Shown: positions 12,244-30,792, numbered from the stretch's first letter. The stretch: DNA of 32,000 bases from an uncultured bacterium (GCA_964640155.1 CAZXEQ010000005.1:1-32000); one strand, 5' to 3'. Notes: a model not told the origin generated them from the sequence alone. Program-made: numbers and translations.

Positions 12244-12290
12244 TAGAAGTTACTCGCTCTCCATTTCTTCTCTACTAAACAAACTCACGC

Positions 12291-12327
12291 TAAATAAAAA
12301 ATGGGGCAACCTATGCGACCGACCCAT
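12291..12327 (-). terminator. Candidate intrinsic terminator on the minus strand
   Basis: The minus-strand RNA AUGGGUCGGUCGCAUAGGUUGCCCCAU folds as GGG/CCC plus a C-G/G-U/G-U/U-G/C-G stem. It is followed by UUUUUUAUUU. The G-U pairs become A-C mismatches on the plus strand, so the hairpin is strand-specific. Confidence 0.45.
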
Positions 12328-12460
12328 TCTGAAGTGCATCTAACCTCTCTCTCTTAGGAGTTTCCTTCGGTCTGAGCTGGAGTTACATCTTCACTAGGTT
12401 TAAACTGAGGTTCCGGACAATTGTGAAATCTTTTCAAAAAAGAGACCTTTTTTATTCTTT

Positions 12461-14581: not shown

Positions 14582-14640
14582 TTTAAAATTTCTCTATGTT
14601 TTATAATGATCATGTCATCAAAATCTACTTTTTCATAGAT

Positions 14641-14821
14641 GAGGGTGGCACAAATCCTGGGCCCCTTTCCCGCAAGGTCCTATGCGGACGAAGGCAAAGG
14701 ACTCCCGATTTTATACCCCTTTAAACCTTTTCTTACAAACACATCAGGAGAATGCTCAAGTCACGGGCGCTGGAACCGCAGGACCTGAGGACAAAGGGGT
14801 AAGATTTGTGACAGGACCCTC
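14641..14821. ncRNA. Candidate structured RNA A: 181-nt rod-like element
   Basis: About 34 Watson-Crick pairs join 14641-14687 to 14776-14821: 6 bp, 8 bp, 7 bp, 2 bp, then 11 bp (7+4 around a 2-nt bulge). A C/U-rich, poorly paired apical segment of about 56 nt lies at 14708-14763. GC is 53% by hand count. The strand is not resolvable because there are no G-U pairs. Confidence 0.45.
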
Positions 14822-14859
14822 TACTTTTGAATAAGAACACCCTTTGATCAATAGCATCC

Positions 14860-16311
14860 TTAATGATGATGCAAAACTTTATAAATTTTATCAGCAAGTT
14901 TTCTGGAAATGCCTGTTGCCTTTTGCAACTCATCCATAGATGCTTTCTTCATCTCTCCGATAGAACCAAAATGCTTTAGCAATTCTGCTCTTTTTACAAG
15001 ACCAACTCCAGATATATCATCTAAAATAGATTCTTTTAATTTCTTTTCTCTAAGAATTTTGTGATAGGTTACAGCAAAACGATGTGCTTCGTCCCGAATT
15101 CTTTGAATCAAATGCAGAGCGCCAGAATCTTTAGCCAATCGAAGAGGTTCATTAGAAAAAGGTCGATAAATTTCCTCATAACGTTTAGCCAAGCCAATCA
15201 CAGGAAGCGCTGTTAAACCCATTTCTTGCAAAACACTAAAAGCTGAAGAAAGTTGCCCCTTGCCCCCATCAATCAAAATCAAATCAGGGAAAACACCTCC
15301 CTCTTCTTTTAAGCCTCGATAACGCCTCCCCACCACCTCCTTCATCATGGCAAAATCATCAATGCCCAAAACACTTTTGATACGAAAACGTCTATAAAAC
15401 CGCTTATCGGGGGCACCTTGAAAAAAATGTACCATGGAACCTACAGCCTCTTTTCCAGAAAAATTAGAAATATCAAAAGCTTCCATTCGAATAGGCGGAT
15501 TTTCTAGGCCCAGAACCTCTGCCAGAGACTGCATCTCTTGCACAGCATGAGACGAGATCCTTTTAAAATTACGTAAAGTATTCATCCGAGTTCCTGCAAT
15601 ATTTTCAATCGCCCTCATCCGGTCTCTGAGTTGAGCTGCCTTTTCAAAATCTAAATTCTTAGAGGCTTCTTCTATTTGCTTTTTCATCTTAAAAACAAGC
15701 TCTTGAGATCGACCTAATAAAACTTGGCAAGCATGGTCAACAGATTGTCGATAATCCTCTTTTGAGATATTTCCCACACAAGGAGCTGAACACCATTTCA
15801 TCATTTGATAAAGACAATGGTCATAATCAGGTTTTCTAGGATCGACTAAATTACATGTTCTAATCTTAAAAATTTTTTGAAGTTGTTCCACTGTTTTTCG
15901 AAGTGCTTGTGAGTTGGTATAGGGCCCCAGGTATAATGCCCCATCGGGTTTTTTCGTTCGGGTGATCATAAACCGAGGAAAAGATTCGTTGAATGTCACT
16001 TTAAGTAAAGGATAAGTTTTATCATCTCTATAAGAGACATTGTACTTTGGTTTAAATTCCTTGATATATTGACATTCTAAAATCAAAGCTTCTTGAGGAG
16101 ATTTGAGTACAATAAAATCAATGTCTCGAACGGCCTCAATCATAGCTTCTGATTTTGGAGAGCCTTTTAAATCTCGAAAATGAGATAATAGCCTTGAGCG
16201 CAATCGAACCGCTTTACCTACATAAATAACCTCCCCTAACTCATTACGCATGAGGTAAATCCCACATTTTTGAGGAATTTTATGTATTTTTTCTTTCAGT
16301 TCCAATCGCAT
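14860..16311 (-). CDS. uvrC: Excinuclease ABC subunit C (compact form)
   Basis: GIY-YIG N-terminus (GIYLMRN..GEVIYVGKA), UVR motif (FEKAAQLRDRMRAIENI), endonuclease domain (LILIDGGKGQL) and C-terminal (HhH)2. It is only 483 aa. Confidence 0.9.
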   Translation of the reverse strand: MRLELKEKIHKIPQKCGIYLMRNELGEVIYVGKAVRLRSRLLSHFRDLKGSPKSEAMIEAVRDIDFIVLKSPQEALILECQYIKEFKPKYNVSYRDDKTYPLLKVTFNESFPRFMITRTKKPDGALYLGPYTNSQALRKTVEQLQKIFKIRTCNLVDPRKPDYDHCLYQMMKWCSAPCVGNISKEDYRQSVDHACQVLLGRSQELVFKMKKQIEEASKNLDFEKAAQLRDRMRAIENIAGTRMNTLRNFKRISSHAVQEMQSLAEVLGLENPPIRMEAFDISNFSGKEAVGSMVHFFQGAPDKRFYRRFRIKSVLGIDDFAMMKEVVGRRYRGLKEEGGVFPDLILIDGGKGQLSSAFSVLQEMGLTALPVIGLAKRYEEIYRPFSNEPLRLAKDSGALHLIQRIRDEAHRFAVTYHKILREKKLKESILDDISGVGLVKRAELLKHFGSIGEMKKASMDELQKATGISRKLADKIYKVLHHH

Positions 16312-16321
16312 GTATAAACCC

Positions 16322-16350
16322 TTGACATCTTTAAAGGTAAATTCTATATT
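16322..16350 (+). promoter_or_regulatory. Sigma70-type promoter for rpsT (TTGACA-17 nt-TATATT)
   Basis: Perfect -35 TTGACA at 16322-16327, an exact 17-nt spacer, and TATATT at 16345-16350. AAAGGA SD at 16385-16390 precedes the ATG at 16396. Confidence 0.65.
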
Positions 16351-16395
16351 TATCGCCTAATTTGCTTATTATATCAAGATTTTGAAAGGAATTTT

Positions 16396-16665
16396 ATGGC
16401 ACATAGTATTTCAGCACTTAAGAGAGCTCGACAAGCGTTAAAAAGACGAGCCAAAAATAAAACCAATAAGTCTAATCTTAAAGGCCAAACGAAGATCTTC
16501 TTAAACATTTTATCCTCCAAAAAGAAGGATGAAGCGGTTGCGGCTTTTAAAGAACTCTCAAGTCAATATGACAAAGCTGCTAAAAAGGGCATTGTCCATC
16601 GCCGTAACGCAGATCGTCATAAGTCTCGCTTAGCTCAGAGACTCGCGAAAGCTTTTGCTGCCTAA
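16396..16665 (+). CDS. rpsT: 30S ribosomal protein S20
   Basis: 89-aa highly basic protein beginning AHSISALKRARQALKRR. Size and composition are typical of bS20. Confidence 0.92.
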   Translation: MAHSISALKRARQALKRRAKNKTNKSNLKGQTKIFLNILSSKKKDEAVAAFKELSSQYDKAAKKGIVHRRNADRHKSRLAQRLAKAFAA

Positions 16666-19600
16666 AAAGACTCTTTTCATCCTTGTAGGTGGTTATTTCT
16701 TCTCCGGAGCTTGTGCCCTTGTTAGTGAGATTGTTTGGGCACGGCAAATCCAAATTTTTCTGGGATCTAGTACTCTTTCAGTTTCTGCCATACTCATCAC
16801 ATTTATGAGTGGCATTACTTTAGGGAGTTATTCTTTAGGACGCTCTCTAAAATCTTCCAAACACCCTCTTCTTCTCTATTGTTTTCTTGAAGCAGGCATT
16901 GGCCTTTTAACTCTTTTTCTCTTATGGTTTTACCCCTTTCTTCTTTCATCCCTTCATTTAAGTACCATTTGGCGTTATTTTCTAACGATCATTCTCTTTA
17001 GCATCCCTACTTTTCTCATGGGAGGAACTTTCCCTATTTTGAATGAAGTCTGCAAAAAACTTTCTGCAACTGAAAAAAACTGGCCCGCTATTCTTTATGG
17101 ATACAATGTTTTAGGAGGAACCCTCGGCGCTTTGATGGGTGGATTCTTTTTGATCTATCATCTTGGACTAAAACATACGCTTATACTAACCAGCTCTATT
17201 AATTTATCTATTGCATGTGTTTCAGCACTTATTTATAAAAAAGCATCAAACGCCTCCCCTCATATTGAAACTTTTTATAAGAGTAATCCTTCTCAAAAAC
17301 TTCAGCCTAATGTAGGGATGTTTTGTCTTTTCATCGTTGGCTTTATTTCCATGATGTATGAAGTTTTAACAACACGTCTTTTGGCCATTGTTCTGGGGAG
17401 TTCAACCTATGCCTTCACTCTCATTCTGACCACATTCCTACTGGGACTTGCTCTTGGAAATTTTTTACTCTCAAAGATAAGCCAGAGAACCTCTTATCCT
17501 TTGCTCTGGCTTATGGGATTACAAGTTATTCTTGGATTTTTTATTCTGACCAGTCTGTGTCTTCAAGATCAATTGCCCCTTTTCTTTTATAAACTTTTTC
17601 CAATATTTGAAAATTCATTCTGGAGCATTCAAGGGCTTCAATTCCTGATCTGTACTTTAATTCTTTTAGTGCCTACCAACCTTATTGGAGCTTCATTCCC
17701 ATTTTTAATTCGAATAGGGCAAAGCACCGTTACAGACAAATATAATTCTTTAGGGACACTGTATGCTATCAATTCCCTAGGAAATACGTTTGGAGCTCTT
17801 CTCACATCTCTTATTTTACTACCCTTCTATGGCCTAGAAAAAACTTTCAAAGTAAATGCTTTTATTTCTATTGCATTAGCAGCTCTTCTCTCTTTTTATT
17901 TGCCCTATAAAAAATCAACGCGCATTATGTTGATGTCTGGGATTTTAACAATAAGTCTTTTGCTTTTTAAAATTCCTCATCTGGATCTTAAACTTTTGAC
18001 TTCGGGGATTTCACTCTCTTCAAAAAATTATCATACCTTGGGGCTCTCACCCGATCGCTTCATTAAAGAAATAGCGCCTGTCAAAATTCTTTTTTCAAAA
18101 GATGGTTGGACCAGTCATGTAACCGTAAGAAAACATAAAAAAGTTCAAAGTCTTCTGATTAATGGAAAGGTTGAAGGCTCCAATGGACAAGATCTTCAAA
18201 CAGAACTTTTGGTTGCCCATTTACCTTTGCTATTACATTCTCAAACCGAGAATGTTTTTGTCATTGGCCTGGGGACAGGGATTACTTTAAGAGCCATTGA
18301 AACATATCCTGTAAAAACGATCACTTGCGTTGAAATTGAAAAAAGAGTTCTGGAGGCCAGTCAGCTTTTCAAAAAACATCATCACAATGCTCTCTCAGAT
18401 CCCAGACTTAAACTTATGGTAGAAGATGCTCGCCATGTTCTTTCCTCTTCTTCAGAAAAATATGACTGTATTATTTCTGAACCTTCTAATCCCTGGATGG
18501 CTGGGATTGGCTCTCTCTACACCATTGAAATGTTTCAAGAAATTAAAAATCATCTTAATGAGAAAGGCGTCGTTTGCCAATGGGTTCATTACTACAACAT
18601 GTCTCCAAACGATTTAAAAACCATTGTGAGAACTTTTCAAACTGTTTTTCCAAATAGTTCTCTATGGGGACAAGCCCATTTAAGTGATCTTTTTTTAATT
18701 GGGTTTAAAGATCCTGATCAAAAATTTCAAATTCCAAATTTGAACCTTAGCAATCCTAAGACTCGTAAAGATCTTCATTCCATTGGTCTTTCCAATACTA
18801 AAATTCTTCAAGCTTTACAATATTTAGACAAAGAAGAACTGGCAGCTTTTGCAGGGCAAGGAAAACTTCACACAGATGATCTTCCGATTCTAGAATTTTC
18901 TGCACCTCAAGCTCTTTACCAAGACACCCTTTCATTAAATTTAAAAGAAATCTTAAAATTCAGAAAAAATCGAATTTTAAAACATGAAAAAGCCATGACT
19001 TTTTATCTCCAAGCTATGGAAAACTTTTATAATAAAAATGAACAAAAATATTTTGAAAATCTTTCAATGGCATTTCAAAAATCTCCTAAATGGCAAAGTC
19101 TTTATCAACTCTATGAAAATGCTGTTTATAAAGAAACTCAGCGCTTGTTTGAGGATAAAAAAGAAAGAGAAGCCCTTGATTTACTTGAAAAAGCGCTCCC
19201 CTTTATTTCAAAATCATCTCGCATTCAATACACCTTAGGATTTCTCTATCAACAAAAGGAAGCGTGGGAAAAAGCAAAAGCCTGCTATCAAAAAACTGTA
19301 AAAATAAATCCACGGTTTGCTCAAGCTTATAATAATCTTGGAGCGGTTTATCTTCAATTTGAAGAAAATGATTTAGCCTATCAATCTTTTAAAAAAGCCC
19401 TTGAATTAGATCCCTTCTATATTGAAGCCCATCTTAATTTGGGCTATTGCCTCCTTCAGCAAAAAGCTTTGGAAGCAGCTGAATTAGAATTTAAACTCTG
19501 CATCGGTTTGAACAGTCAACTTGCCTCTGCTTATAACGGACTCGGTGTCGTTTTAGCCATGCAGAAAAAATTTGATCAAGCGACAGAACAATTCAAAGAA

Positions 19601-19675
19601 GCATTAGAACTAGAACCTCAAAACTCAGAAGCAAAGCGTAATTTAGAGAAAATGGCTCAAAAACTAAATGATTGA
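16655..19675 (+). CDS. Fused polytopic membrane domain / spermidine-synthase-like methyltransferase fold / C-terminal TPR protein
   Basis: 1006 aa. About 12 predicted TM segments are followed by a VFVIGLGTGIT..DCIISEPSNPW aminopropyltransferase-like core and TPR repeats (AYNNLGAVY, AHLNLGYC, AYNGLGVV). TTG start overlaps the rpsT end by 11 nt. Confidence 0.8.
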   Translation: MLPKKTLFILVGGYFFSGACALVSEIVWARQIQIFLGSSTLSVSAILITFMSGITLGSYSLGRSLKSSKHPLLLYCFLEAGIGLLTLFLLWFYPFLLSSLHLSTIWRYFLTIILFSIPTFLMGGTFPILNEVCKKLSATEKNWPAILYGYNVLGGTLGALMGGFFLIYHLGLKHTLILTSSINLSIACVSALIYKKASNASPHIETFYKSNPSQKLQPNVGMFCLFIVGFISMMYEVLTTRLLAIVLGSSTYAFTLILTTFLLGLALGNFLLSKISQRTSYPLLWLMGLQVILGFFILTSLCLQDQLPLFFYKLFPIFENSFWSIQGLQFLICTLILLVPTNLIGASFPFLIRIGQSTVTDKYNSLGTLYAINSLGNTFGALLTSLILLPFYGLEKTFKVNAFISIALAALLSFYLPYKKSTRIMLMSGILTISLLLFKIPHLDLKLLTSGISLSSKNYHTLGLSPDRFIKEIAPVKILFSKDGWTSHVTVRKHKKVQSLLINGKVEGSNGQDLQTELLVAHLPLLLHSQTENVFVIGLGTGITLRAIETYPVKTITCVEIEKRVLEASQLFKKHHHNALSDPRLKLMVEDARHVLSSSSEKYDCIISEPSNPWMAGIGSLYTIEMFQEIKNHLNEKGVVCQWVHYYNMSPNDLKTIVRTFQTVFPNSSLWGQAHLSDLFLIGFKDPDQKFQIPNLNLSNPKTRKDLHSIGLSNTKILQALQYLDKEELAAFAGQGKLHTDDLPILEFSAPQALYQDTLSLNLKEILKFRKNRILKHEKAMTFYLQAMENFYNKNEQKYFENLSMAFQKSPKWQSLYQLYENAVYKETQRLFEDKKEREALDLLEKALPFISKSSRIQYTLGFLYQQKEAWEKAKACYQKTVKINPRFAQAYNNLGAVYLQFEENDLAYQSFKKALELDPFYIEAHLNLGYCLLQQKALEAAELEFKLCIGLNSQLASAYNGLGVVLAMQKKFDQATEQFKEALELEPQNSEAKRNLEKMAQKLND

Positions 19676-19691
19676 AACACTCTTATGATGA

Positions 19692-19844
19692 AAAACCTCT
19701 CAAAAAGGTGCCAAACATGTCCTTATAGTCCCCGTAAGGGGATGCAAGGCATCCACAAGCGACTGCGGAGGCGTACGTTTAATGGTACGCCGCACAAAGA
19801 AGCGCAGTGGGTAACGCAGCAGATGGACCTTTTTCAGAGGTTTT
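19692..19844 (+). ncRNA. Candidate structured RNA B: 153-nt multi-helix element 16 nt downstream of the preceding stop codon
   Basis: An 18-position closing stem (17 WC pairs) joins 19692-19709 to 19827-19844. It encloses a core that is 56% GC by hand count. Core hairpins: 19729-19742 (GUAA loop), 19740-19754, 19770-19791, and 19762-19767 paired with 19803-19808. UUUU follows the 3' arm. Strand is assigned from context only. Confidence 0.5.
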
Positions 19845-19876
19845 AATTAATTTGGGATTAAAAACAGACAAAATCT

Positions 19877-19885
19877 TGTTATAGT
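19877..19885 (+). promoter_or_regulatory. Candidate extended -10 promoter for htpX (TGTTATAGT)
   Basis: TGnTATAGT at 19877-19885, about 30 nt upstream of the ATG. AGAGGAG SD at 19901-19907. Confidence 0.35.
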
Positions 19886-19915
19886 GTTAGACATGAATTT
19901 AGAGGAGAAAACACC

Positions 19916-20764
19916 ATGAATGTGACAAAAACAACTTTATTAATGGCTCTTTTAACCGTTCTTTTTGTTTTTGCAGGAGGCGCCGTAGGTGGCCAGCAAG
20001 GGATGGTTTTTGCTTTTCTATTCGCATGTGTCATGAATGTTGTGACCTATTGGTTTTCTCATAAAATTGTTTTGGCCTTGTATCGAGCCAAACCTCTTTC
20101 AGAAAAAGAAGCACCTGAAGTATATGCCATTGTAAGGGATTTAGCGCTTAAAGCTAATATCCCTATGCCTCAACTTTATCTCATTCCTCAAGAAGCACCT
20201 AACGCCTTTGCAACGGGAAGAAACCCAAAGCATGCAGTCGTTGCAGTCACACACGGCATTTTGAATCTCTTAAACAAAGAGGAATTGCGTGGAGTTCTTG
20301 CGCATGAACTTTCTCATGTTAACAATCGTGACATTCTTGTTGGGACTATTGCTGCCACAATTGCAGGAGCCATCAGTATGCTTGCCAATATGGCCCGTTG
20401 GGGAATGATGTTTGGAGGCGGACATCGTGATAACGATCGAAATAATCCTCTGGGCGGTATTCTTGCCATTGTTGTTCTCATTTTTCTACCTATTGCCGCC
20501 ATGCTTATTCAATTGGCTATTTCCAGAACACGTGAATATGGAGCAGATGAAACCGGAGCAAGATTAACAGGTAATCCTTTAAGTTTAGCGAATGCTCTAA
20601 GAAAGTTACAATCTTACTCTCAACGAATTCCCATGCAAGCCAATCCAGCAACTGCTCATATGTTTATCGTCAATCCTCTCAGTGGCAAAAGTTTATTAAA
20701 ACTTTTTAGCACCCATCCACCCTTGGAAGATCGAATTGCACGTTTGGAACAAATGGCACGGTAA
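19916..20764 (+). CDS. htpX: Zinc metalloprotease HtpX (M48 family)
   Basis: 282 aa with an N-terminal TM pair, a HELSH zinc motif, and conserved REYGADE and [10 protein letters not shown] motifs. Confidence 0.92.
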
Positions 20765-20793
20765 AGACCGTAGATCGTAAAAAATAAAATATT

Positions 20794-21591
20794 CTAACGA
20801 TTCTGATCTACAAGCTCTTGAGCACTTTTTTCGCCTATTTCAATTGATTCTTTAGCTTTGCGAAAATCATATAGCTGAACATGATCAATAGAGGGTCGAA
20901 TCAAATAGTCTGGAGGATTTTGTAACAAAGTTAATTCTGCAATTCTTGATTCCATCATGTAGAGACTACGCAAAAGAGTATCACTCATTAAAAAAACCCC
21001 ATTCAACGATTTACGAGGCATCATTTTGACACGCGTAGTTACATCCACAGCAATAACCGAAGCTTTACTCAATTGACGAACCTGATATACAGGAACAGGA
21101 TCAGAAAGACCTCCATCAATTAAAAACTGTCCTTCTATTTCTTTAGGCTGAAAGATCCCAGGAATTGAAATACTGGCTCGTACTGCTTCCACAACCGATC
21201 CGTTTTTTAATGCAATTGCTTGGCCTGTCTCTAAATTCGTTGCTGTCACACAAAGAGGAATTTTTAAATCTTCAAATTTTAAATCTCCTAAAATATCTCT
21301 CAAAAAATTTTCGATACGATCCCCTTTTAGAAAGCCCCTCTTAGGCAAAGACAAGTCAAGAAATGTAAGCCATTTCTTCCAATCTATTTTCAAAACAAGT
21401 TTTTCAATTTCAAGAGCGGATAAACCAGAAGCATACAGACAAGCAATTAAAGCCCCCATGCTAGCACCTGAAAGTGCTTCAATACGAAATTTTTCTCTCT
21501 CTAAAACTTTTAAAACTCCAACATGAGCAAAACCACGTGCACCACCAGAACCGAGAGAAAGACAAATAGAGGAAGGCAAATAATCTGACAC
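20794..21591 (-). CDS. Patatin-like phospholipase (RssA/NTE-like)
   Basis: 265 aa with a GSGGARG oxyanion motif, a GASMGA nucleophile elbow (GxSxG) and a DGG catalytic Asp motif. GTG start. Confidence 0.85.
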   Translation of the reverse strand: MSDYLPSSICLSLGSGGARGFAHVGVLKVLEREKFRIEALSGASMGALIACLYASGLSALEIEKLVLKIDWKKWLTFLDLSLPKRGFLKGDRIENFLRDILGDLKFEDLKIPLCVTATNLETGQAIALKNGSVVEAVRASISIPGIFQPKEIEGQFLIDGGLSDPVPVYQVRQLSKASVIAVDVTTRVKMMPRKSLNGVFLMSDTLLRSLYMMESRIAELTLLQNPPDYLIRPSIDHVQLYDFRKAKESIEIGEKSAQELVDQNR

Positions 21592-21597
21592 CTGAGA

Positions 21598-21786
21598 TTA
21601 AACCTTTTTCTCAGGGTTATCTTTTTTTATAAAAACGACATGCATGTAGTTAGCACAATGAGGACATTCAATAATAGAAGTTCTGCGAGTGATTTTTACT
21701 TGAGTTTGACAATGAGGACACTGCGCTTCAGAGTTTTCAGAAACAGGTATAGCAACATAGATCGTACTTTTTGATTTTGGATCCAT
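21598..21786 (-). CDS. Small zinc-ribbon protein
   Basis: 62 aa with two CPHC pairs (CPHCQTQ...CPHCANY). ATG start. Its stop lies 7 nt before the patatin start. Confidence 0.55.
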   Translation of the reverse strand: MDPKSKSTIYVAIPVSENSEAQCPHCQTQVKITRRTSIIECPHCANYMHVVFIKKDNPEKKV

Positions 21787-21848
21787 GTGTTTATTATACT
21801 CTTTTTTTAAAAAACTCCAGATAAGAATTTAATTTTAATCACGATAAC

Positions 21849-21987
21849 ATCGGTGAATAGAGCGTGAAGACCATTGGAGCTCGAGCGAGCATGGAACCCC
21901 GATAAATATCGGGGGAAGCGAGAGCTCCTTTGAGTTCGTTTACCTCGCCGGGGGAAACGAACGTGTCTGAATACTCTATTCACCGAT
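21849..21987 (-). ncRNA. Candidate structured RNA C: 139-nt three-way-junction element
   Basis: A perfect 14-bp closing stem joins 21849-21862 to 21974-21987, extended by AGAC/GUCU (21868-71 with 21965-68). Stem 21876-21882 pairs with 21922-21928 and is capped by the hairpin CCCCGAU-AAAU-AUCGGGG (21897-21914). A separate 8-bp hairpin spans 21934-21962. GC is 52% by hand count. Strand is assigned from flanking gene orientation only. Confidence 0.5.
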
Positions 21988-22005
21988 ATCTATGTAGAAA
22001 ATAGT

Positions 22006-22755
22006 TTACACTTTTATTTCAAGCCCATCTTTGGCCAAAACCACTTTCCCTGAATATATTTTTCGAACAATTTTTAAAATGTTAATTCGATCACTAGGAG
22101 GATAAAAATGGCTCAATACCAATTGTTTAGGAGAAGCTTTTTGAGCTAAATGGGCTGCCTGGGTCGGGGTTAAATGCCCCTTCACTTTCATAGAGTCAGG
22201 GAAAGAACATTCCAGAATAAGAAGATTTACATCTTTGCTTAATTGAATTAAATTTTCTGAAAAATCCGTATCTCCTGAGAACACAACAGATTTTCCTCTT
22301 TCTTCAAAACGAAAAGAAACACTTTCAGCGATATGTTGAGGCTGACAAGTTTTAACAAAAACGCTCCCTATTTTGAACTGACTGCCCCTCATTTCCTTAA
22401 TGATCAATTCATACTTCTTAGGAATCAACCAACCTTGATACGTTTTTGATAAATCATTAAAAAACTTCTTAAACCCAGAACCTCCCACAATCGTTAATTT
22501 CTTACGACGTGAGTTAGTCCCATATTTACTTGCAAATAAGAAAGGAACTAAATCCGTCACATGATCAGGATGAATATGGGTATAAAAAAGTGCATCAATC
22601 TGATTTAACGTATATCCTGCTTGCAATATTCTCGTTAAAGTTCCTGCTCCACTATCTATCAAGAATAAATTTTTATTAGTTTTTAGTAAATAGCCAGGAG
22701 AACCTCGTTCTAAGCAAATAACACCTGTTCCAGAACCAAGGACAATCACCTTCAT
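22006..22755 (-). CDS. MBL-fold metallo-hydrolase
   Basis: HIHPDH (HxHxDH) motif, N-terminal VLGSGTG and C-terminal LSHF. I prefer the start at 22755, an ATGA overlap with the nagZ stop, over the longer ORF start at 22827. Confidence 0.8.
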   Translation of the reverse strand: MKVIVLGSGTGVICLERGSPGYLLKTNKNLFLIDSGAGTLTRILQAGYTLNQIDALFYTHIHPDHVTDLVPFLFASKYGTNSRRKKLTIVGGSGFKKFFNDLSKTYQGWLIPKKYELIIKEMRGSQFKIGSVFVKTCQPQHIAESVSFRFEERGKSVVFSGDTDFSENLIQLSKDVNLLILECSFPDSMKVKGHLTPTQAAHLAQKASPKQLVLSHFYPPSDRINILKIVRKIYSGKVVLAKDGLEIKV

Positions 22756-24263
22756 GAAGACATTCCACAAAGAAGCTGAATTGCTCGATGAATTTGTGGG
22801 GTACGAAATCCGTAAGTTTGAATGCATGTCGTTGAGGAATTAACAAATTGAACATCATAGGGATTTCTTAAAAGAACTACTGCTAGATGAGAGAACTTTT
22901 GCTGAAGTTTCAGCAAAAGTTCTCTCTGAGAAGAAAGATGAACCGCATCGAAGCAAAACATCACTATGGGTGAATTTTTAGAAAGTTTCTCGAGTTTCTC
23001 AGAAAAATTATCTTTGATCAAATCAAACCTTATTTCTTCAACATCATACTTATAAGAATTAAAAGTTTTAGAAAAAAAAGAAGGATTTTCCAAAAGAGTG
23101 GCTTCAAAAAAATATTTGTTCTGTACAGAAGAAAAGTCTGGGATAAGAATTAAAAATTTTTGGTTAGTTGGATGAGAAAGAGGAAAAGAACCTTGATGAA
23201 CAAATTCGACAGATCTTTCAGAAATTTTTTTGGCTAGTTCAGAACCACTCTCTTTTCCAACACTTAAGGGATTCTTTCGTAAATCCTTTAAGACGGTCTT
23301 TAATCTTAAAACACTTTTCTCTAGATTTTCCCATTTAAGTCTCTTCTTTTCATAAGCTTCTTGAAGGGCATTATAACCCTTCTCAACCAAATCTTTCTGA
23401 TGACAGATTAAAACAAGATCATGTCCCACTTCAACTGCTCGGACCACCGCTTCTTCAAATGGGAAACGGCGAAGAATGGCTCCCATTTCTAAATCATCTG
23501 AGAAAATAATATTTTTAAAATTCAATTCTTCCCTTAAAAGTGTTGTCACAATTTTTTTTGAGAAAGTTGCTGGTAATTCTTTCTCAAAAGCGGAATAAAC
23601 CACATGACTGGTCATCACAAATGAAATACCCGAATGAATCGCTTTTTGAAAAGGTTGAAGATGAAGATTTTTCATCTCTTCAAACGAACAATTCACAAAG
23701 GGAAGATCTTCATGAGCATCTACTGTCGCTGCCCCTTTTCCAGGGAAATGCTTCGCCGTTGCCCCTACTCCTTGAGATTGCATTCCTGTCATCAAAGCAC
23801 AGCCCAACTGAGAAACTATTCTTGGATCTTGGCCAAAAGAACGAATTGTAATTCCTGGATTGAGGGTAGGAGTTAAAACATCTAAGACAGGGGCTAAGTT
23901 CACGTCAATCCCCAGCGAGCGAAGTTCATATCCCATGATACGCCCTTGTACTTGCGCCCAAACTTCGGATCCTGCTTTTCCTAAAGCCATATTTCCAGGG
24001 AAAGACGTAAAACCATCTTCAAGCCGCTGCACAAGACCACATTCATGATCAATGGTAAAAAAAACTTCTTCTCCTAAAAGAGTACGAATCTGCTGAATCA
24101 AATTTTTTAATTGAAGAGCAGAGTCAATATTTCTAGAAAAAAAGATAATTCCAGAAGGACGGATTTTTGAAAGAAAAAGTTTTAAATCCTCATTTAAAAC
24201 TTTCCCTTCAAAACCTATCACCAAATGGCACCCCACATGAAGAGAAGTCATCTTAAAATCCAA
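22752..24263 (-). CDS. nagZ: Beta-N-acetylhexosaminidase, glycoside hydrolase family 3, with an extra C-terminal domain
   Basis: 503 aa with KHFPGKG and SDDLEMGA motifs of the GH3 N-terminal domain. The ORF opens with TTG; the ATG at 24251 is an alternative start. Confidence 0.85.
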   Translation of the reverse strand: MDFKMTSLHVGCHLVIGFEGKVLNEDLKLFLSKIRPSGIIFFSRNIDSALQLKNLIQQIRTLLGEEVFFTIDHECGLVQRLEDGFTSFPGNMALGKAGSEVWAQVQGRIMGYELRSLGIDVNLAPVLDVLTPTLNPGITIRSFGQDPRIVSQLGCALMTGMQSQGVGATAKHFPGKGAATVDAHEDLPFVNCSFEEMKNLHLQPFQKAIHSGISFVMTSHVVYSAFEKELPATFSKKIVTTLLREELNFKNIIFSDDLEMGAILRRFPFEEAVVRAVEVGHDLVLICHQKDLVEKGYNALQEAYEKKRLKWENLEKSVLRLKTVLKDLRKNPLSVGKESGSELAKKISERSVEFVHQGSFPLSHPTNQKFLILIPDFSSVQNKYFFEATLLENPSFFSKTFNSYKYDVEEIRFDLIKDNFSEKLEKLSKNSPIVMFCFDAVHLSSQRELLLKLQQKFSHLAVVLLRNPYDVQFVNSSTTCIQTYGFRTPQIHRAIQLLCGMSS

Positions 24264-24283
24264 AAGGACATAAAAAGATATTC

Positions 24284-24799
24284 CTAAATTTTGGATTTTT
24301 GTGTCAGACCATCTGCTCCAAGATCTGCAGGGCTTACAGATGATGGTAATGTAGGGGAAGAATCATCTATTTCAGACTGAGACTCTTGCACTTCAGATTT
24401 TTCAAATGTAGATTGAGAAGATGTTTGAGAAACAGCATCCGAAGCTTCTGATTCTTCCTCTTTTTCCTCAATATCAATGTCTTCCCATTTAACCAATGCA
24501 TCTCCTTCAAAAACCAAACGTTTTCCTTTTGAAACATAGCGAAAATTGACAGGAAATTTTGGTAAAAAGGCATGGTAAGTCCACTGTTCAATAGGAGATC
24601 CCCATTTCGTATCTCCCAAAAATTTTATATGCTCAGGATGTCCCCAACCTGCAATCACTTGATCCTTGGTCATCCCTTGAGTTAAAGAATCTCCTCCCGT
24701 AACCACAGATTCTACATTTAATTTTTTAGTAGGATCTTTAAAGTCACTGCATCCTGAAAACAATATTGTTAACCCCAGTAAACAATAAAAATATTTCAT
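24284..24799 (-). CDS. Lipoprotein with a BamE/SmpA-OmlA-like domain and an acidic Ser/Glu-rich tail
   Basis: Lipobox LFSGC after the MKYFYCLLGLTI signal. GMTKDQVIAGWGHP resembles BamE. A strong AGGAG SD lies 7 nt upstream of the ATG at 24799. The track ORF extends to a TTG at 24823. Confidence 0.7.
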   Translation of the reverse strand: MKYFYCLLGLTILFSGCSDFKDPTKKLNVESVVTGGDSLTQGMTKDQVIAGWGHPEHIKFLGDTKWGSPIEQWTYHAFLPKFPVNFRYVSKGKRLVFEGDALVKWEDIDIEEKEEESEASDAVSQTSSQSTFEKSEVQESQSEIDDSSPTLPSSVSPADLGADGLTQKSKI

Positions 24800-24824
24800 A
24801 CCATTTCTCCTTTTTTTAAACAAT

Positions 24825-26405
24825 TTACATTTTTTTCTGAATTCTCTTTTTTTCTCGTTCAGAAATATCCATCCCTAAAATTTTTTGATAATACTCCTTA
24901 GCCTTCTTACGATCATTCAAATGATCTCGATACAAATCCCCTATCTTTTCAAACACTCCACTATCTTGTGGAGCTAATTCTAAAATCCTTTTCCATATTT
25001 CCAAAGCATCTTGGAACTTCCCATTTGATTCAAAACTCACAGCCAAATGTCTAAGCAAAAAAACATTGAGAGAATCCTTCTCGAGAGCTTTTTGAAACCA
25101 TACAATCGCTTCTTGCGCATCTCCCTTTTTTAAACAAACAAGCCCCAAGTCTCCCATAATCGCTGGAGATGCATTTTTTGAGAGAGCCCTGCGTAAACAG
25201 TAATAAGCTTGATCGTCATTACCTAAATGTAAATGAGAAAGACCCAATTTGCGATAAACTTTATAATAGTTAGGCGCCAGCTTAACTACTTTTTCATAGG
25301 CAATCATGGCTGACATATAATCTTTCTTTTGAAAGTAGGCATTTCCTAAACTATACTGCAAAACTGGATTTTGGGGGTCCAGATCAAGTGCCTTTTGATG
25401 GTATTGAATGGCCTGATCTATTTGTTTCATGCGTCGATATAGAATCGCAATATTATTATACCCCCAAACATTTTTTGGATTCATTTGAACAACTTCTTTA
25501 AAATAGCGTATGGCATCTTCAAATTGTCTCATCTCAAGATAAATAAGACCCATGGAGTTTTTGGTTAATTCATCTGTTGGGTTTGCCTTCAAATATGTCT
25601 GATATTCTAAGATAGCTTGTGGATATTGTCGTTTAAGCTCATAAAGTGCACCTAATTTTCGATGAAGTTCAAGATTTTGAGGATCTAACTCAAGCACTTT
25701 CAAAAAATAAGTTAATGCACTATCATAATTTTTCAAATCAAAGTAATTTTCTGCAAGTAAAAAATCTGTAAGCGCGGGATCCACTTTTTTTTCTATAGCT
25801 TTTTCAATCATTTGCTGTGCCAAATCCCATTTCTTAAATTGACGATAGAAATCCGCTGCACTGAGATAAATTTGAGGGTGATCTGGATTTTGCGATAATG
25901 CCCTTTTAAAAAGAGTGTCTGATTTTTCAAAAACTCCTTTGATTGCAAAAACTTCAGCAACAGCCCAAAGAACTTGCCAATTCTGGGCTCCAAGTTGTTG
26001 GGCTTTTTGAATTTGTACATTGGCTTGTTTTTTAAAGCCTCGTTTTAGAAAAGAAATCCCCAACCAGGCATAGGCCCCTAAATGTTGAGGATTTAAACGT
26101 AAAACCTCCCAAAACTGTTTCATTGCATGTGCATAGTCTTTTTTAGAGAAATAGATTCTGCCTAAATTGAAATAGGCTTCTTCGAAATTAGGATTCTCTT
26201 GAACAGCTTGAGTCCATTCTTGAACAGCCTTATTCCATTGGCCTTCTTGGAAGTAAGTGAGTGCTTGTGCATGATGGGATTTGACTATTTCCTCATCAGC
26301 CAAAACAGGAGATGAGAAAATAGAATAAAGAGATAAGACGATTAGAAAAAAGATCATTTTCTTTTGTACATACACTAAGAAGAGCATCATATTATTTGTC
26401 TTCAA
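24825..26405 (-). CDS. Secreted or membrane-anchored tetratricopeptide-repeat protein
   Basis: 526 aa with an N-terminal hydrophobic signal (…SSPVLA/DEE) followed by more than 10 TPR units (recurrent A..YFNLG/A..Y...L..NP pattern). The start is ambiguous: TTG at 26405, or ATG at 26390 or 26357. Confidence 0.8.
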   Translation of the reverse strand: MKTNNMMLFLVYVQKKMIFFLIVLSLYSIFSSPVLADEEIVKSHHAQALTYFQEGQWNKAVQEWTQAVQENPNFEEAYFNLGRIYFSKKDYAHAMKQFWEVLRLNPQHLGAYAWLGISFLKRGFKKQANVQIQKAQQLGAQNWQVLWAVAEVFAIKGVFEKSDTLFKRALSQNPDHPQIYLSAADFYRQFKKWDLAQQMIEKAIEKKVDPALTDFLLAENYFDLKNYDSALTYFLKVLELDPQNLELHRKLGALYELKRQYPQAILEYQTYLKANPTDELTKNSMGLIYLEMRQFEDAIRYFKEVVQMNPKNVWGYNNIAILYRRMKQIDQAIQYHQKALDLDPQNPVLQYSLGNAYFQKKDYMSAMIAYEKVVKLAPNYYKVYRKLGLSHLHLGNDDQAYYCLRRALSKNASPAIMGDLGLVCLKKGDAQEAIVWFQKALEKDSLNVFLLRHLAVSFESNGKFQDALEIWKRILELAPQDSGVFEKIGDLYRDHLNDRKKAKEYYQKILGMDISEREKKRIQKKM

Positions 26406-26460
26406 TTATTATAGTAAATATCCTATGATTAACCATATATAAAACCAATAGGAAACATTT

Positions 26461-26958
26461 ATGGATGCAAATACCATTGAAGTTGGGACTATTCAGCAAA
26501 AAGCTTTTATTCGCATCAAAGGCCGAGGGGACTTTCTGAATAGTCAAGTTCTCAAAGACTTCGTCAACACGATGATGGAGAAAGGGCTGACTGATTTTCT
26601 CCTAGATCTCAAAGGCTGCAAAACCATGGATAGTACTTTCATGGGAGTTTTAGCCGGAACTGCACTTCAACTAAAAAATCAATATCATAAAACTCTTACT
26701 CTCTTTCATGTTGAAGAGCATAATCTACAACTTCTGACCACACTGGGCATACATATTTTTCTTAATATTGTCCCTGATGAATTTACCCCTTCCACAAAAC
26801 TTCAGGAACTTCCAAACCCTTCCTCCTCCAAAGAAGAACTTGCGCAAGAAATGTTAAAAGCCCATGCTATTTTGATGGAAATTTCTGAAGAAAACAAAGT
26901 CAAATTTAAAGATGTTTATGAATACCTCAAAGAAACCATTAAAAAAGGATCTGCATAA
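26461..26958 (+). CDS. STAS-domain protein (anti-sigma-factor-antagonist-like) with a C-terminal extension
   Basis: 165 aa. LLDLKGCKTMDSTFMGVLAG resembles the SpoIIAA/RsbV phosphorylatable-serine segment. About 55 extra C-terminal residues. Confidence 0.7.
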   Translation: MDANTIEVGTIQQKAFIRIKGRGDFLNSQVLKDFVNTMMEKGLTDFLLDLKGCKTMDSTFMGVLAGTALQLKNQYHKTLTLFHVEEHNLQLLTTLGIHIFLNIVPDEFTPSTKLQELPNPSSSKEELAQEMLKAHAILMEISEENKVKFKDVYEYLKETIKKGSA

Positions 26959-27056
26959 TCAGTTAACTGGTTCGATCGTTCATCTATAGATCGCTGGTTA
27001 GTACATTTCAAAAAAGGAAAATCACCATTAACTTTCCGTTTTTCATCTTACCCTTT

Positions 27057-28469
27057 TTGCTCGTCGTTTTTTTGCTCTTAACGCTTGTCTATTATCGAAC
27101 AAAATTCTTATTAGATCAGCTCCAAAACTCCTATCGAACACTTTCTCAAGAAAAGGAAGTTGTCTTATCCTTTATCCGTGAAATTGGCGATGCTTTCACC
27201 TCTGCAGATGAATTAAAACATCTTTTCCAAATCATTATCACCTGTTCAAAGAGAACATTGAATGCATCTGCAGAAGCCATTTTTCTTCTTGATGAAAGTC
27301 ACTCTTACTTACAAGCCAAAGTGATCGATGGACTTTTCCCACCTATTTTTGAGGCATTACCAGCTGATTCTCTTTCAAAAGTTGCAACAAAAACGAAATA
27401 TCTTCAGGATTTGATTTTAGGGCTTAAAATCCCCCTTGGAGAAGGAATTGTAGGTCGTACTGCACAAAACAGAGCCTCCCTTCTTATCAAAGATGCATCT
27501 ATTGACTCAAGAATTACACAACCTCCCATTGATTTTTTAAAAGTAAAAACTCTCATGATTGTTCCACTCATTTTTAAGGAAGAAGTCATCGGAATCATGA
27601 TCGCTGCAAATAAAACAGATGATAAAACTTTTACAGAAATTGATCTCTCCCTTTTCGAAGCATTGTCAGATCAAGCCGCGCTCTCCATTCACAATGCACG
27701 GTTGTATCAAGCTATTTCAGAAAAAGAAAAATTGGATAAAGAATTAAAAACAGCAACTCAAGTGCAAAAGCTGCTTCTTCCAGCTCGTTACCCAGAAATT
27801 CCCGGTTTTGACTTTTCAGCTTTAAGCCGTCCTGCACGTCAAATTGGAGGAGATTATTATGATTTTTTTCCTGTAGGACCTGGCCAATACGCAATGGCCA
27901 TTGCAGACGTTTCAGGAAAGGGTATTCCTGCTGCTCTCATTATGACAATGGCACGAAGTATTTTAAGAAGTTCTGCTCCAGAAAAAATGTCTCCGAGACA
28001 AGTGCTTTCAGAACTCAATCGACTTCTTCATGGAGATATTCAACAAGACATGTTTATCAGTATGGTTTATTTGGTTTTAGATGAACAAAAAAAGCAACTA
28101 AGACTTACGAGAGCCGGACATGAACCTATTCTCTTCTATGACAAAAAAGAAGGAGCTGTCAGATTTATGCGACCTCAGGGAATTGTCTTGGGAATGGACC
28201 CCGGATCTCTTTTTACTTCAACTCTTGAAGAAATATTACTGGTCCTTAATCCAGGAGATATTCTCGTTCTTTATACAGATGGGGTAACAGAAGCACAGGA
28301 CTTTGAAGGCAAAGAATTTGGATATGAAGCCTTAGCAGAATCAATTCGAAGTTCAGCAAATCTACCTGCTCAAGAAATTGCAAATTATCTGATGGCTCGA
28401 ATTTTGAGATTCACAGGAAATATTCCTCAAAGAGATGATTTAACTTTGTTAATTATTAAAGCCCTTTAA
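27057..28469 (+). CDS. GAF-domain PP2C-type (SpoIIE/RsbU-like) serine phosphatase
   Basis: 470 aa from a TTG start. GAF-like GEGIVGRTA..VPLIF..EVIGIM, then PP2C motifs GGDYYDF, IADVSGKG, LYTDGVTEA and RDDLTLL. The reading frame is open back to 26967, so the start is uncertain. Confidence 0.85.
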   Translation: MLVVFLLLTLVYYRTKFLLDQLQNSYRTLSQEKEVVLSFIREIGDAFTSADELKHLFQIIITCSKRTLNASAEAIFLLDESHSYLQAKVIDGLFPPIFEALPADSLSKVATKTKYLQDLILGLKIPLGEGIVGRTAQNRASLLIKDASIDSRITQPPIDFLKVKTLMIVPLIFKEEVIGIMIAANKTDDKTFTEIDLSLFEALSDQAALSIHNARLYQAISEKEKLDKELKTATQVQKLLLPARYPEIPGFDFSALSRPARQIGGDYYDFFPVGPGQYAMAIADVSGKGIPAALIMTMARSILRSSAPEKMSPRQVLSELNRLLHGDIQQDMFISMVYLVLDEQKKQLRLTRAGHEPILFYDKKEGAVRFMRPQGIVLGMDPGSLFTSTLEEILLVLNPGDILVLYTDGVTEAQDFEGKEFGYEALAESIRSSANLPAQEIANYLMARILRFTGNIPQRDDLTLLIIKAL

Positions 28470-28491
28470 TTTTTATAAAATTACCATTCTA

Positions 28492-30699
28492 TTAACGATC
28501 TGAGACCGAACTCATTTTAAAAGATTTCCCATCACATTCTAAGACAAAAGAACACGCCCTTTCCCCTTCAAAAAGAGAGATTCTCCTTGCTTTAATTTCT
28601 TCACTCAAATACTTTTGAAAACCTTCTTTAAGAAAAACTGCTTTTATCTTTTGATGATCCATCCATTTTAAAAACGCTTCAACATCAACCTTATCTTCAA
28701 TAAAAACAACTCCTTCACCTTGCATCTTTTCCATTCTTAATTTTTCAAAAGTTCCCGCACGAAACCAAATCATCCATTGATCTTGATAATAAAGTTTTTC
28801 TAGCTCCCCTTCCGGAGAAATTTCAACTTTTATATTTTCCATCAAAGAAAGAGGTAAAGAATCTAAAGTTTGAGACTTTACGATCTGGAAAACACTGGTC
28901 TTTAAACTAGATTCTGTTTTAGGGATAAAAAGATGATTAATTTCTTTTACTTTTAATAAGAATAGAAGTTGATGAAGCCAAGGCTCTTCAATAGAAGTCG
29001 TATCAATACCGTTAAGCCAAAGAGAATATTTTTTATTCCATTCCATCATTTGTATATTTACTTGGCCTCGAGAAAAAGAAGAAAGCTTTAAAATATTTTC
29101 ATGACGAGCAGGAAATAGAAATACAACCAGGCTCAAAGCTATCAGCCAAAAATAAGATGTTTTGATTTTTTGAGTCCCTTTCCATAACCCTAAGAAAAGA
29201 ATGGCATAAAAAGAAATCATCCATAGCCAAGAAGGTCGATTAATAAAAAAATAAGCCCCTGGAAATTTTGAGAATAAATCCATGCTAGATACTAAAAAAC
29301 TCAAAAAAACCTCATTCATCATATTCAAAGGAACAGCAACAAAATCAGAAAAACCTAAAAGACCCACCACAAAACCTACATTCATGACAATGCCGACCAA
29401 AGGAACCGCTAATAAATTAGCTAAAATTGTTATAGGAGAAAAAACATGAAAGTGATAAGCGATCAAAGGGAAAACACCTATCCAAACGGCTAAAGAACTA
29501 CTAAGTGTCTTGATGATCCATTGCATCATTTTTTCAAAAAGACGCTCTCTTTTATCTAGAAGAGGGAAAAATCGTTGAGGTATTTTCTGAAGAAAAATCA
29601 AATCTTTTTCAAGAATGGGTGTTAGAAAAATTAACGCCAGCAGGCAAAGAAAAGACAATTGAAACCCAGGATCAAATAGACTTAAAGGATTATAAAGCAA
29701 CATTCCCAAAGCAGATCCTCCTAAAGCGTTGCTTAAATTACTTTTTCTTTTCAGAATTCGTCCGATGAGAAAAAATGTGGCCATAATCGCTGAGCGCAAA
29801 ATAGGAGGAGCCAAACCTGTCATAAAAGAATAAATCCAAATAGACAGAAGAGCCAAAATATAAACCCCTGTTTTAGGAAAAGAAAACAAACCTAGAACAA
29901 ATAAAATACACAGTAGTATCACTGTCAAATGAAGCCCTGAAATTGACAAAATATGAATGGTCCCGGTGTAGAGAAAAGAACTTTTTAGTTCAGGGCTAAC
30001 ATTTTCTCTGGACCCAACAATCATCGCTTGTAATAAAGGTAAAACCGTTGAATCCCTTGAAATTCCTTTCTCAAGATTATGATTTGTAAATTGCCTGAAT
30101 TGTTCAATCCTCTTTTCAAAAGAAATTTGATCACTCTGCAAGAGATGAATAGATTTAGCACTTGATACTTTTACTACTAAAACAACTCCCTGACTTTTCA
30201 GCCAAACAGGAAAACCTTCTTCATGACTGAAATTACTGAAAGGCCTTTGAAGAATCTTTCCTTCGAGTTCTATTTTGTCAAAGCGATTGAGTAAACAGTT
30301 CTCTCCCCCTTTCACAAGTACTTTCCCATTTGCAGAAAACCAGCGGTGATCTTCATGAGTAGAGTGAACATCTACGATGATTTGTTTAAGCCCAGAAATC
30401 TGAACAAAATCTACAATTTCTCCCTGAATTTGAATAAATGTTTTAGCTTTGGACAGTTGATCGATACGATCAGAGGAAGGAAAATAAATCTTAAAATCAT
30501 AAAGAAAAATTCCGACTAAAAAACATACACTTAAAAGACAAATATTTGAGATTTTCTGATTTTTTAAAAAAGGGAAAATAATTAAGAGCACAAAACCTAA
30601 AATCCATAGTCCAACGGTTAAACTAAAAGGAAGAAAAGAAGCTGTAAAAATTCCGACGGCAAGAGAAATAGAGAGAACAAGAAGAGGTTGTTTTGTCAT
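28492..30699 (-). CDS. comEC: DNA internalization competence protein ComEC/Rec2 family
   Basis: 735 aa with an N-terminal DUF4131/OB-like region and a polytopic competence domain (GTIHILSISGLHLT, FQLSFL). The C-terminal ~200 aa lack HxHxDH. Confidence 0.85.
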   Translation of the reverse strand: MTKQPLLVLSISLAVGIFTASFLPFSLTVGLWILGFVLLIIFPFLKNQKISNICLLSVCFLVGIFLYDFKIYFPSSDRIDQLSKAKTFIQIQGEIVDFVQISGLKQIIVDVHSTHEDHRWFSANGKVLVKGGENCLLNRFDKIELEGKILQRPFSNFSHEEGFPVWLKSQGVVLVVKVSSAKSIHLLQSDQISFEKRIEQFRQFTNHNLEKGISRDSTVLPLLQAMIVGSRENVSPELKSSFLYTGTIHILSISGLHLTVILLCILFVLGLFSFPKTGVYILALLSIWIYSFMTGLAPPILRSAIMATFFLIGRILKRKSNLSNALGGSALGMLLYNPLSLFDPGFQLSFLCLLALIFLTPILEKDLIFLQKIPQRFFPLLDKRERLFEKMMQWIIKTLSSSLAVWIGVFPLIAYHFHVFSPITILANLLAVPLVGIVMNVGFVVGLLGFSDFVAVPLNMMNEVFLSFLVSSMDLFSKFPGAYFFINRPSWLWMISFYAILFLGLWKGTQKIKTSYFWLIALSLVVFLFPARHENILKLSSFSRGQVNIQMMEWNKKYSLWLNGIDTTSIEEPWLHQLLFLLKVKEINHLFIPKTESSLKTSVFQIVKSQTLDSLPLSLMENIKVEISPEGELEKLYYQDQWMIWFRAGTFEKLRMEKMQGEGVVFIEDKVDVEAFLKWMDHQKIKAVFLKEGFQKYLSEEIKARRISLFEGERACSFVLECDGKSFKMSSVSDR

Positions 30700-30704
30700 A
30701 AATA

Positions 30705-30792
30705 CGGGTGACGCTCGACGGGGCGCCCTACCGAGCGCAACTTTTGCTGAGCACGGTGATGGTCCCGATGTGACATCGGGGGACCCGCCACC
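30705..30792 (-). ncRNA. Candidate structured RNA D: 88-nt GC-rich leader/intercistronic element abutting the comEC start codon
   Basis: 68% GC by hand count. Hairpin 30712-30717/30732-30737 carries a GGGCGCCC palindrome in its loop. Hairpin 30755-30792 contains CCCGAUG-UGA-CAUCGGG. An alternative closing pairing joins 30705-09 to 30783-87. The element ends 5 nt before the comEC ATG, which has no SD. Confidence 0.5.

Follow-up and report, generated by a model that had tools for sequence, protein, structure and literature searches.

Does the unusual set of GC-rich structures found just after stop codons in one stretch of bacterial DNA represent a single family of RNAs, or does it have some other origin? 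The DNA in question is a 32,000-nt sequence from an uncultured bacterium (GCA_964640155.1 CAZXEQ010000005.1:1-32000), which we call the window and always consider at its full length. An initial annotation, made from the sequence alone, drew attention to four intergenic islands, A to D, and proposed that they form an undescribed family of RNA modules or, alternatively, that they are decayed foldback mobile elements. Our analysis does not support one RNA family, and the sequences instead point to a mixed set. On balance, we consider it probable that the islands represent several unrelated families of small non-coding foldback elements in the short gene spacers of this Chlamydiota lineage, resembling miniature inverted-repeat transposable elements (MITEs), REPINs or Rickettsia palindromic elements (RPEs). 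We favor this reading because A, C and D are additional to what is found in sister genomes, A has inverted repeats and a direct repeat, B occurs at differing loci and in both orientations, and multi-copy foldback families are present in relatives. The fact that both strands fold about equally well also contributes to this preference.

Islands A, C and D at orthologous sites

Homologues of HtpX whose source names are labelled Chlamydiae or Chlamydiota indicate that the window comes from an uncultured member of the Chlamydiota. Using HtpX and ComEC homologues, we collected the syntenic loci L002, L004, L005, L010, L012, L024 and L025. The HtpX protein is 91% identical to that of the window in L002 (where DNA identity is 83-89%), 85% in L004 and L024, which belong to the same organism, 81% in L010, 80% in L005 and 79% in L012. 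L025, also from the Chlamydiota, is related through a ComEC protein with 40% identity.

Comparison with these loci shows that A, C and D were each inserted specifically in this lineage, and that the spacers which received them had at first been very short (2-75 nt). Their nearness to stop codons is explained by insertion into spacers of this length.

For island A, the gene tables, the sequence of the empty site, blastn breakpoints and an alignment were used to delimit an inserted block relative to L002 and L005 (Table 1). The distance from the UvrC stop codon to the start of the DUF255 gene is 12 nt in both of these loci and 278 nt in the window. The terminal inverted repeat of A has the form GAGGGT..CACAAATC..CCCCTTT / AAAGGGG..GATTTGTG..ACCCTC, and its duplex has an energy of -34.7 kcal/mol. 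The two copies of the direct repeat around A are identical at 12 of 14 positions, which was equalled in 5 of 2000 shuffles. Beyond the island, the final ~30 nt of uvrC are also repeated in degenerate form (14601-14640 versus 14860-14886), so the insertion of A was accompanied by a local duplication of the gene end.

At the site of island C, the spacer measures 45 nt in L002 and 219 nt in the window. The boundaries of this insertion carry a direct repeat matching at 10 of 14 positions, which is not significant relative to shuffles. Downstream of C is a small zinc-ribbon-like open reading frame (ORF) that encodes 62 amino acids in the window (21598-21786), 96 in L002 and 81 in L004; the L002 locus (11630-11920) is ~100 nt longer within this ORF. 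Island D has no counterpart in the corresponding spacer of three loci: L025 has a 2-nt gap there, and L005 and L024 have unrelated sequence.

Table 1. Coordinates of the four islands, their parts and foldback elements of related loci. Positions refer to the window unless another locus is named.
Feature	Coordinates	Strand	Description
Island A	14641..14821		GC-rich foldback core; three-block terminal inverted repeat
Block inserted at A site	14611..14862		Relative to L002 and L005
Left direct repeat of A	14624..14637	+	TCTACTTTTTCATA; inside degenerate duplicate of UvrC 3' end
Right direct repeat of A	14820..14833	+	TCTACTTTTGAATA; abuts right arm of inverted repeat
Island B	19692..19843	+	Outer stems P0/P1 (A-run/U-run), covarying middle stems, invariant core
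Extra mini-hairpin in B	19712..19739	+	28 nt, located by alignment; contains the UCCCCG noted earlier
B core	19763..19807	+	CTGCGGAGGCGTA-loop-TACGCCGCACAAAGAAGCGCAG
Island C	21849..21987		Three-way foldback; 14-bp perfect terminal inverted repeat ATCGGTGAATAGAG / CTCTATTCACCGAT
Block inserted at C site	21818..21997		Relative to L002; absent also in L005 and L004
Hairpin in C	21897..21914		CCCCGAT-AAAT-ATCGGGG
Island D	30705..30792		Two GC-rich hairpins, no terminal helix; ends 5 nt before ComEC start codon
Hairpin in D	30764..30780		CCCGATG-TGA-CATCGGG; sole block common to C and D
Double perfect-hairpin element	L002 9796-9929		134 nt, in htpX leader; insertion not in window
Foldback family of L025	L025 3244-3384 and 16035-16167		Two intergenic copies within 19 kb
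Foldback family of L025	L025 14340-14430 and 17705-17806		Two intergenic copies within 19 kb

Island B and its homologues

Judging from sequence comparisons, island B is a new, well-supported structured motif outside Rfam. It is present at the same site in L002 (9628-9751) and absent from that site in L005, L004 and L010. The window and L002 copies are 92% identical over 125 aligned bases, in contrast to 65% identity at four-fold degenerate sites in eight flanking genes (P = 1.5e-12). Other short intergenic regions have a mean identity of 84% between the same two loci.

We scanned metagenomes with a 19-mer from the core of B, and ten loci were returned. Two of these, L019 and L021, contain clear homologues of B, and the proteins encoded beside them are found, with full identity, in two closely related metagenome-assembled genomes (MAGs) of Candidatus Omnitrophota. 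The other eight matches were rejected as chance occurrences in high-GC coding DNA. A covariance model, R1, was built from four sequences (window, L002, L019 and L021). It scores the window copy at 123.6 bits and detected a fifth member (75.8 bits, E 4e-15) in L025, where leuS and a comEA-like gene flank the element. Nothing further was found with R1 in ~218 kb of loci, A, C and D gave no match to the model even when E values up to 10 were admitted, and Rfam searches of L019 and L021 gave no match with E up to 1.

The B family therefore comprises five members, one in each of five genome sequences from two phyla (Chlamydiota and Omnitrophota), and occupies four unrelated loci. The loci are speE-TPR/htpX (window and L002), pyrC/carA (L019), a position downstream of an xerC-like gene (L021) and leuS/comEA (L025). 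All members are 0-16 nt from a stop codon. The copies in the window and L002 are in sense orientation, with their 5' end behind a co-directional gene, while those in L019, L021 and L025 are antisense, with their 3' end toward the stop codon of a convergent gene.

The members have in common a core, CUGCGGAGGCGUA-loop-UACGCCGCACAAAGAAGCGCAG, that is set in covarying stems closed by AAAAAG/CUUUUU. Outside of its loop, the core is the same in the window, L019 and L021, differs by one base in L002 (CTGCGA) and differs at several positions in L025. In the window, an A-run forms the 5' side of the closing stem, which is followed by UUUUAAUUAAUUU. The mini-hairpin listed in Table 1 is missing from the other four members, and is therefore a nested insertion.

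In an alignment by MAFFT that was analyzed with RNAalifold, 13 of the 37 base pairs exhibit compensatory changes. The five-sequence alignment, which was fitted to the model and so favors structure, has 16 of 37 pairs covarying and 95.7% of its cells paired. None of 500 shuffles equalled this result, and slid controls gave 2-8 covarying pairs. Each member has 2-4 G-U pairs (four-sequence alignment), which favor the written strand, and A-C mismatches occur in L019 alone.

A 53-codon ORF, from ATG to TAA, spans B exactly (19685-19846). This ORF is most likely spurious, since GC-rich sequence has few stop codons. A coding function for B was also rejected on other grounds: the frame has a stop codon in L002, and loop lengths within the family differ by non-multiples of three.

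Composition and folding of the islands

The four islands are located where the initial annotation placed them, and their computed GC content (A 53%, B 50%, C 52%, D 68%) is high relative to the 37.5% of the window. The remaining intergenic regions have 14-43% GC, setting aside a few spacers that are too short to count. Segments of 60 nt with at least 58% GC occur at seven places in the 32 kb, and five of these are inside the islands. The islands are 88-181 nt in length and contain multiple hairpins. Several other properties that had been proposed are also confirmed. Based on ORF coordinates, the islands begin 16-38 nt past the upstream stop codon (A 38, B 16, C 18 and D 27 nt). A U-tract follows B and is missing after A, C and D. 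The ends of A, B and C are joined by a terminal helix that is significant relative to shuffled sequences (0, 4 and 0 of 500 shuffles, respectively), whereas the helix available to D was reached by 140 of 500 shuffles and is not above chance.

The proposed scarcity of G-U pairs applies to B, C and D, which have one or two each, but not to A, in which 8 of 62 pairs are G-U. Compared to shuffles, B and C fold strongly better (z -6.3 and -7.4), and A and D weakly better (z -2.7 each). The antisense strands fold comparably or better (z -2.5, -9.0 and -2.0 for A, C and D, respectively, with -72.7 kcal/mol for C).

The islands are not explained by a set of known RNA families. Searches with Rfam 15 gave nothing at gathering thresholds, and no match with E up to 10 overlaps any island. 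ARAGORN reported nothing at the islands. A simple terminator scan lists none of them; it predicts 13 sites in the window, versus 13.8 expected from shuffles. Stop-free translations of the islands in six frames matched none of 5.8 billion proteins, even the islands themselves, and this search is uninformative because gene callers evidently skip such regions. The inverted-repeat blocks of A, searched against a collection of genome contigs that does not contain the source genome, gave one chance match, in a Krumholzibacteriia MAG.

The hairpin common to C and D

The initial annotation had further noted a CCCGAU/AUCGGG hairpin module in C and D, in the same orientation. The pattern CCCGAT-loop-ATCGGG indeed occurs exactly twice in the window, once in each of these islands, and was not found in ~200 kb of related loci. 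However, a common 9-mer as long as TCCCCCGAT turns up in 49% of shuffled four-island sets. The shared orientation adds little, because the stem of a hairpin is its own reverse complement. The module is therefore suggestive at best, and statistically weak. Short matches in A and B had also been pointed out, but neither is a hairpin module.

More generally, blastn, nhmmer and repeat finding detected no similarity among A-D or between the islands and the rest of the window. Given this lack of mutual similarity, and given that no homologues of A, C and D turned up in the sequences searched and that all three are absent at the sister sites, the hypothesis of a single undescribed family of RNA modules is not sustained.

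Foldback elements and palindromes in the window and related loci

Foldback elements are also present elsewhere in these loci. The 134-nt element of L002 (Table 1) has a homologue at another locus in L024 (16484-16589; nhmmer E 5e-11), with compensatory changes in its first stem. The contigs L024 and L004 (15096-15123) both terminate inside a copy of this element and overlap by 28 nt, the pattern expected of a repeat within which the assembly graph branches. In L024/L004, the spacer equivalent to the one beside the 5' end of the GH3 hydrolase gene in the window contains a foldback element. Of the two L025 families, one is AT-rich and the other is of the GTCCACAGTCC type. L025 additionally has a 49-53-nt inverted repeat made of purine- or pyrimidine-rich short repeats (GACAGAGG... 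/ ...CTTCTGTC) at 9390-9509, inside a called 207-aa gene directly upstream of ComEC.

Logan contigs from SRR8893623 match the window exactly. There are Logan contig ends inside A, C, the L002 element and the L025 member of the B family. As evidence that A and C are repeats, these contig ends are suggestive only, because hairpins also break low-coverage assemblies and other contig ends are in genes.

A perfect 17-bp palindrome, GAGAGAACTTTTGCTGA-AGTT-TCAGCAAAAGTTCTCTC, is located in the coding region of the GH3 hydrolase (22889-22926). The orthologue in L002 pairs at 12 of the 17 positions, and each of its eight differences from the window contributes to the perfect pairing of the window copy; the protein has no insertion. 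These differences suggest quasipalindrome correction by template switching, which would provide a DNA-level reason for stems that are fully Watson-Crick. The palindrome gave weak matches to miRNA families in Rfam.

Interpretation of the islands

Under our preferred reading, namely unrelated families of foldback elements, the islands would be mobilized in trans by an enzyme that is encoded elsewhere, and A, C and D would be members of repeated families. Because the genome is tightly packed, it may be that only stop-adjacent insertions persist, or else that such sites are targeted. Following insertion, the elements would be co-transcribed as stable hairpins, and some copies, notably B, might then be retained by selection. 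The most plausible role for B, which has an A-run/U-run closing stem, would be as a terminator or a 3'-end-protecting structure that acts in both directions. Near-perfect Watson-Crick stems would result from palindromy at the DNA level and quasipalindrome correction, and not from selection at the RNA level. The earlier suggestion of decayed foldback mobile elements is thus partly retained: foldback mobile elements fit better than an RNA family, but decay does not; B is conserved and covarying.

It is important to consider several observations that weigh against this reading. Neither the related loci nor the 32-kb window yielded another copy of A, C or D. Searches of plasmids and phages with blastn gave nothing, as did searches of viral contigs with the C/D module, two versions of the B core and the inverted-repeat pair of C. 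Within the 32-kb window, no transposase domain, REP-associated tyrosine transposase (RAYT) or Y1 transposase is encoded, and in a shuffle test there was no significant flanking direct repeat for B, C or D. The exact B-core 19-mer occurs only twice across the metagenome collection, so B is not high-copy. Moreover, the center of B is invariant and its ends are variable, which is the opposite of a typical MITE, and the preservation of B at its own locus relative to four-fold degenerate sites, together with the bias of its G-U pairs toward one strand, suits a functional RNA.

These last points lead to the main rival, in which B, and possibly other islands, are genuine host RNAs. B would then be a new structured class, with an invariant core as the binding site for a protein or ligand, functioning as an independent small RNA or 3'-UTR module, and its scatter would result from gene shuffling or horizontal transfer. 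We view this explanation as rather unlikely. The compensatory pairs in both alignments, a conserved center within variable stems and the 92% identity at the htpX locus are what such an RNA would be expected to exhibit, and the lack of an Rfam match means that it would be new. However, the orientation of B relative to neighboring genes varies, no convincing promoter was found upstream of B members, and B is missing at the same site in L005, L010 and L004, which we term closer relatives. The identity of B to L002 must also be seen beside that of the other short intergenic regions, which are likewise conserved, and A, C and D offer no homologues for comparison. Compensatory changes also occur in the clearly mobile L002/L024 family, and covariation is therefore unable to distinguish between RNA function and a requirement for a DNA hairpin. 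With similar reserve, we entertain the idea that B is a new class of structured element common to Chlamydiota and Omnitrophota, with a near-invariant core of ~35 nt. It might be a functional RNA, e.g., a protein-binding, orientation-independent 3'-end module. It might also be a novel type of mobile element, non-autonomous, aimed at gene ends and crossing between phyla. A, C and D would then represent additional families of this sort that are as yet uncatalogued.

Another hypothesis is that the islands formed in place through template switching during replication, local duplication and quasipalindrome correction, and are unique by-products of a mutational bias in this lineage. The GH3 palindrome, which arose by eight coordinated changes relative to L002, shows the kind of event that is imagined, and the mini-hairpin nested in the window copy of B, the diverged duplicate of the UvrC 3' end beside A and the uniqueness of the A, C and D sequences could be understood similarly. 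Template switching, though, copies nearby DNA, yet neither the A nor the C arm is present in the empty sites of L002 and L005, and the spacers, at 20-40% GC, provide no local source for sequence of 50-68% GC. B and the L002/L024 family are, in addition, demonstrably dispersed. We consider an origin in place to be improbable as a result. Still less credible is the idea that the islands lack a common origin or any special meaning and are simply intrinsic terminators of the usual kind or stretches that are GC-rich by chance. B does have a U-tract after a long stem, the terminator scan of the window does not exceed shuffles, and A and D fold only weakly above shuffles. But islands of 90-180 nt with multiple hairpins far exceed terminators in size, A, C and D lack a U-tract and lie inside gene pairs whose spacing in relatives is 2-45 nt, chance falls far short of explaining the GC enrichment and the terminal helices, and the core of B is conserved across phyla. 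These facts largely refute this last explanation.

Comparison with known systems and significance

Bacterial MITEs include, e.g., the Correia/NEMIS elements of Neisseria and the QMITE elements of Coxiella. Like MITEs, the islands are 90-250 nt, non-coding and intergenic, with terminal inverted repeats (A, B and C), a presumably co-transcribed setting and no transposase nearby. They also vary in presence at orthologous sites (A and C are absent in L002/L005, D in L005/L024/L025, and B in L005/L004/L010), and A has a flanking direct repeat. Unlike MITEs, A, C and D are single within the DNA searched, the putative target duplication of ~14 nt at A is long, the center of B is conserved while its ends vary, and a parent insertion sequence is not known. 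Our search of the literature on chlamydial palindromic elements or MITEs, and on the B core string, found nothing specific.

Repetitive extragenic palindromes (REPs) and REPINs are based on an imperfect palindrome of 20-40 nt with a GTAG or CGTC tag at one end, and these elements, along with bacterial interspersed mosaic elements (BIMEs), are mobilized by RAYT transposases (PMC3733652). The islands are similar in being GC-rich palindromes that lie directly past stop codons in both orientations and are in some cases mosaics of hairpin modules, and in having stems that are preserved by compensatory change; REP-type elements are thought to act as terminators or mRNA stabilizers. The islands differ in that they have no 5' GTAG/CGTC tag, are 3-5 times longer and are not seen in many copies, and there is no RAYT gene in the window. 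Based on inspection of the sequences, the only GTAG among the islands is in D, within a hairpin loop.

RPEs often insert in frame into genes. The resemblance here is to several unrelated palindromic families of 100-150 nt, in the AT-rich genome of an intracellular bacterium, with a patchy distribution among relatives. However, the islands are all intergenic, and the likeness is one of description.

GC clusters in yeast mitochondria, treated for an AT-rich mitogenome in PMC7846184, are likewise GC-rich foldback islands in intergenic AT-rich DNA that are polymorphic between strains. Unlike the islands, they belong to another domain of life, are 30-50 nt long and fall into defined multi-copy sequence classes. 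Plots of GC content versus length for intergenic regions have also yielded candidates for structured non-coding RNAs (PMC6429828, PMC11109978). B is similar to such candidates in that it is GC-rich, intergenic in an AT-rich genome, covarying and without an Rfam family, and plots of this type would detect it. Unusually for a cis-regulatory RNA, it has no fixed gene association or orientation.

Should the islands be mobile foldback elements, they would document the way in which a tightly packed genome of the intracellular type gains intergenic structure. Operon spacers of 2-45 nt would have become structured regions of 120-280 nt within one species-level divergence, and such insertions could uncouple genes (uvrC, htpX and comEC, for example) or alter their regulation. 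The B family is a compact, covariation-supported motif that is not in Rfam, occurs in two phyla of the Planctomycetes-Verrucomicrobia-Chlamydiae (PVC) group and is now searchable and testable. A caution also follows for RNA discovery: GC-rich intergenic islands that fold well in AT-rich genomes need not be conserved RNAs, since clearly dispersed elements covary too.

Genes of the window and further observations

The genes of the window include those for two transketolase halves, the nuo operon, the DUF255 thioredoxin-like gene, uvrC, rpsT, a spermidine-synthase/TPR gene and htpX, as well as genes for a patatin, an MBL hydrolase, the GH3 hydrolase and STAS/SpoIIE proteins, comEC and a comEA-like gene. 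Between nuoN and the DUF255 gene, L002 has an additional ORF of 129 aa with unknown function (L002 2089-2650) that is not in the window (12244-12460).

Two AT-rich structures in the window lie outside of the islands. At the 5' end of the GH3 ORF, beside the spacer with a 179-aa gene, there is a hairpin (24160-24218) that weakly matches the Rfam family mir-1502 on both strands (E 0.013). The other is a 25-nt inverted repeat (1034-1104; 88% complementary, with a 21-nt loop) whose start coincides with the stop codon of the first of the two transketolase-half genes and which resembles a terminator-type or low-GC foldback element.

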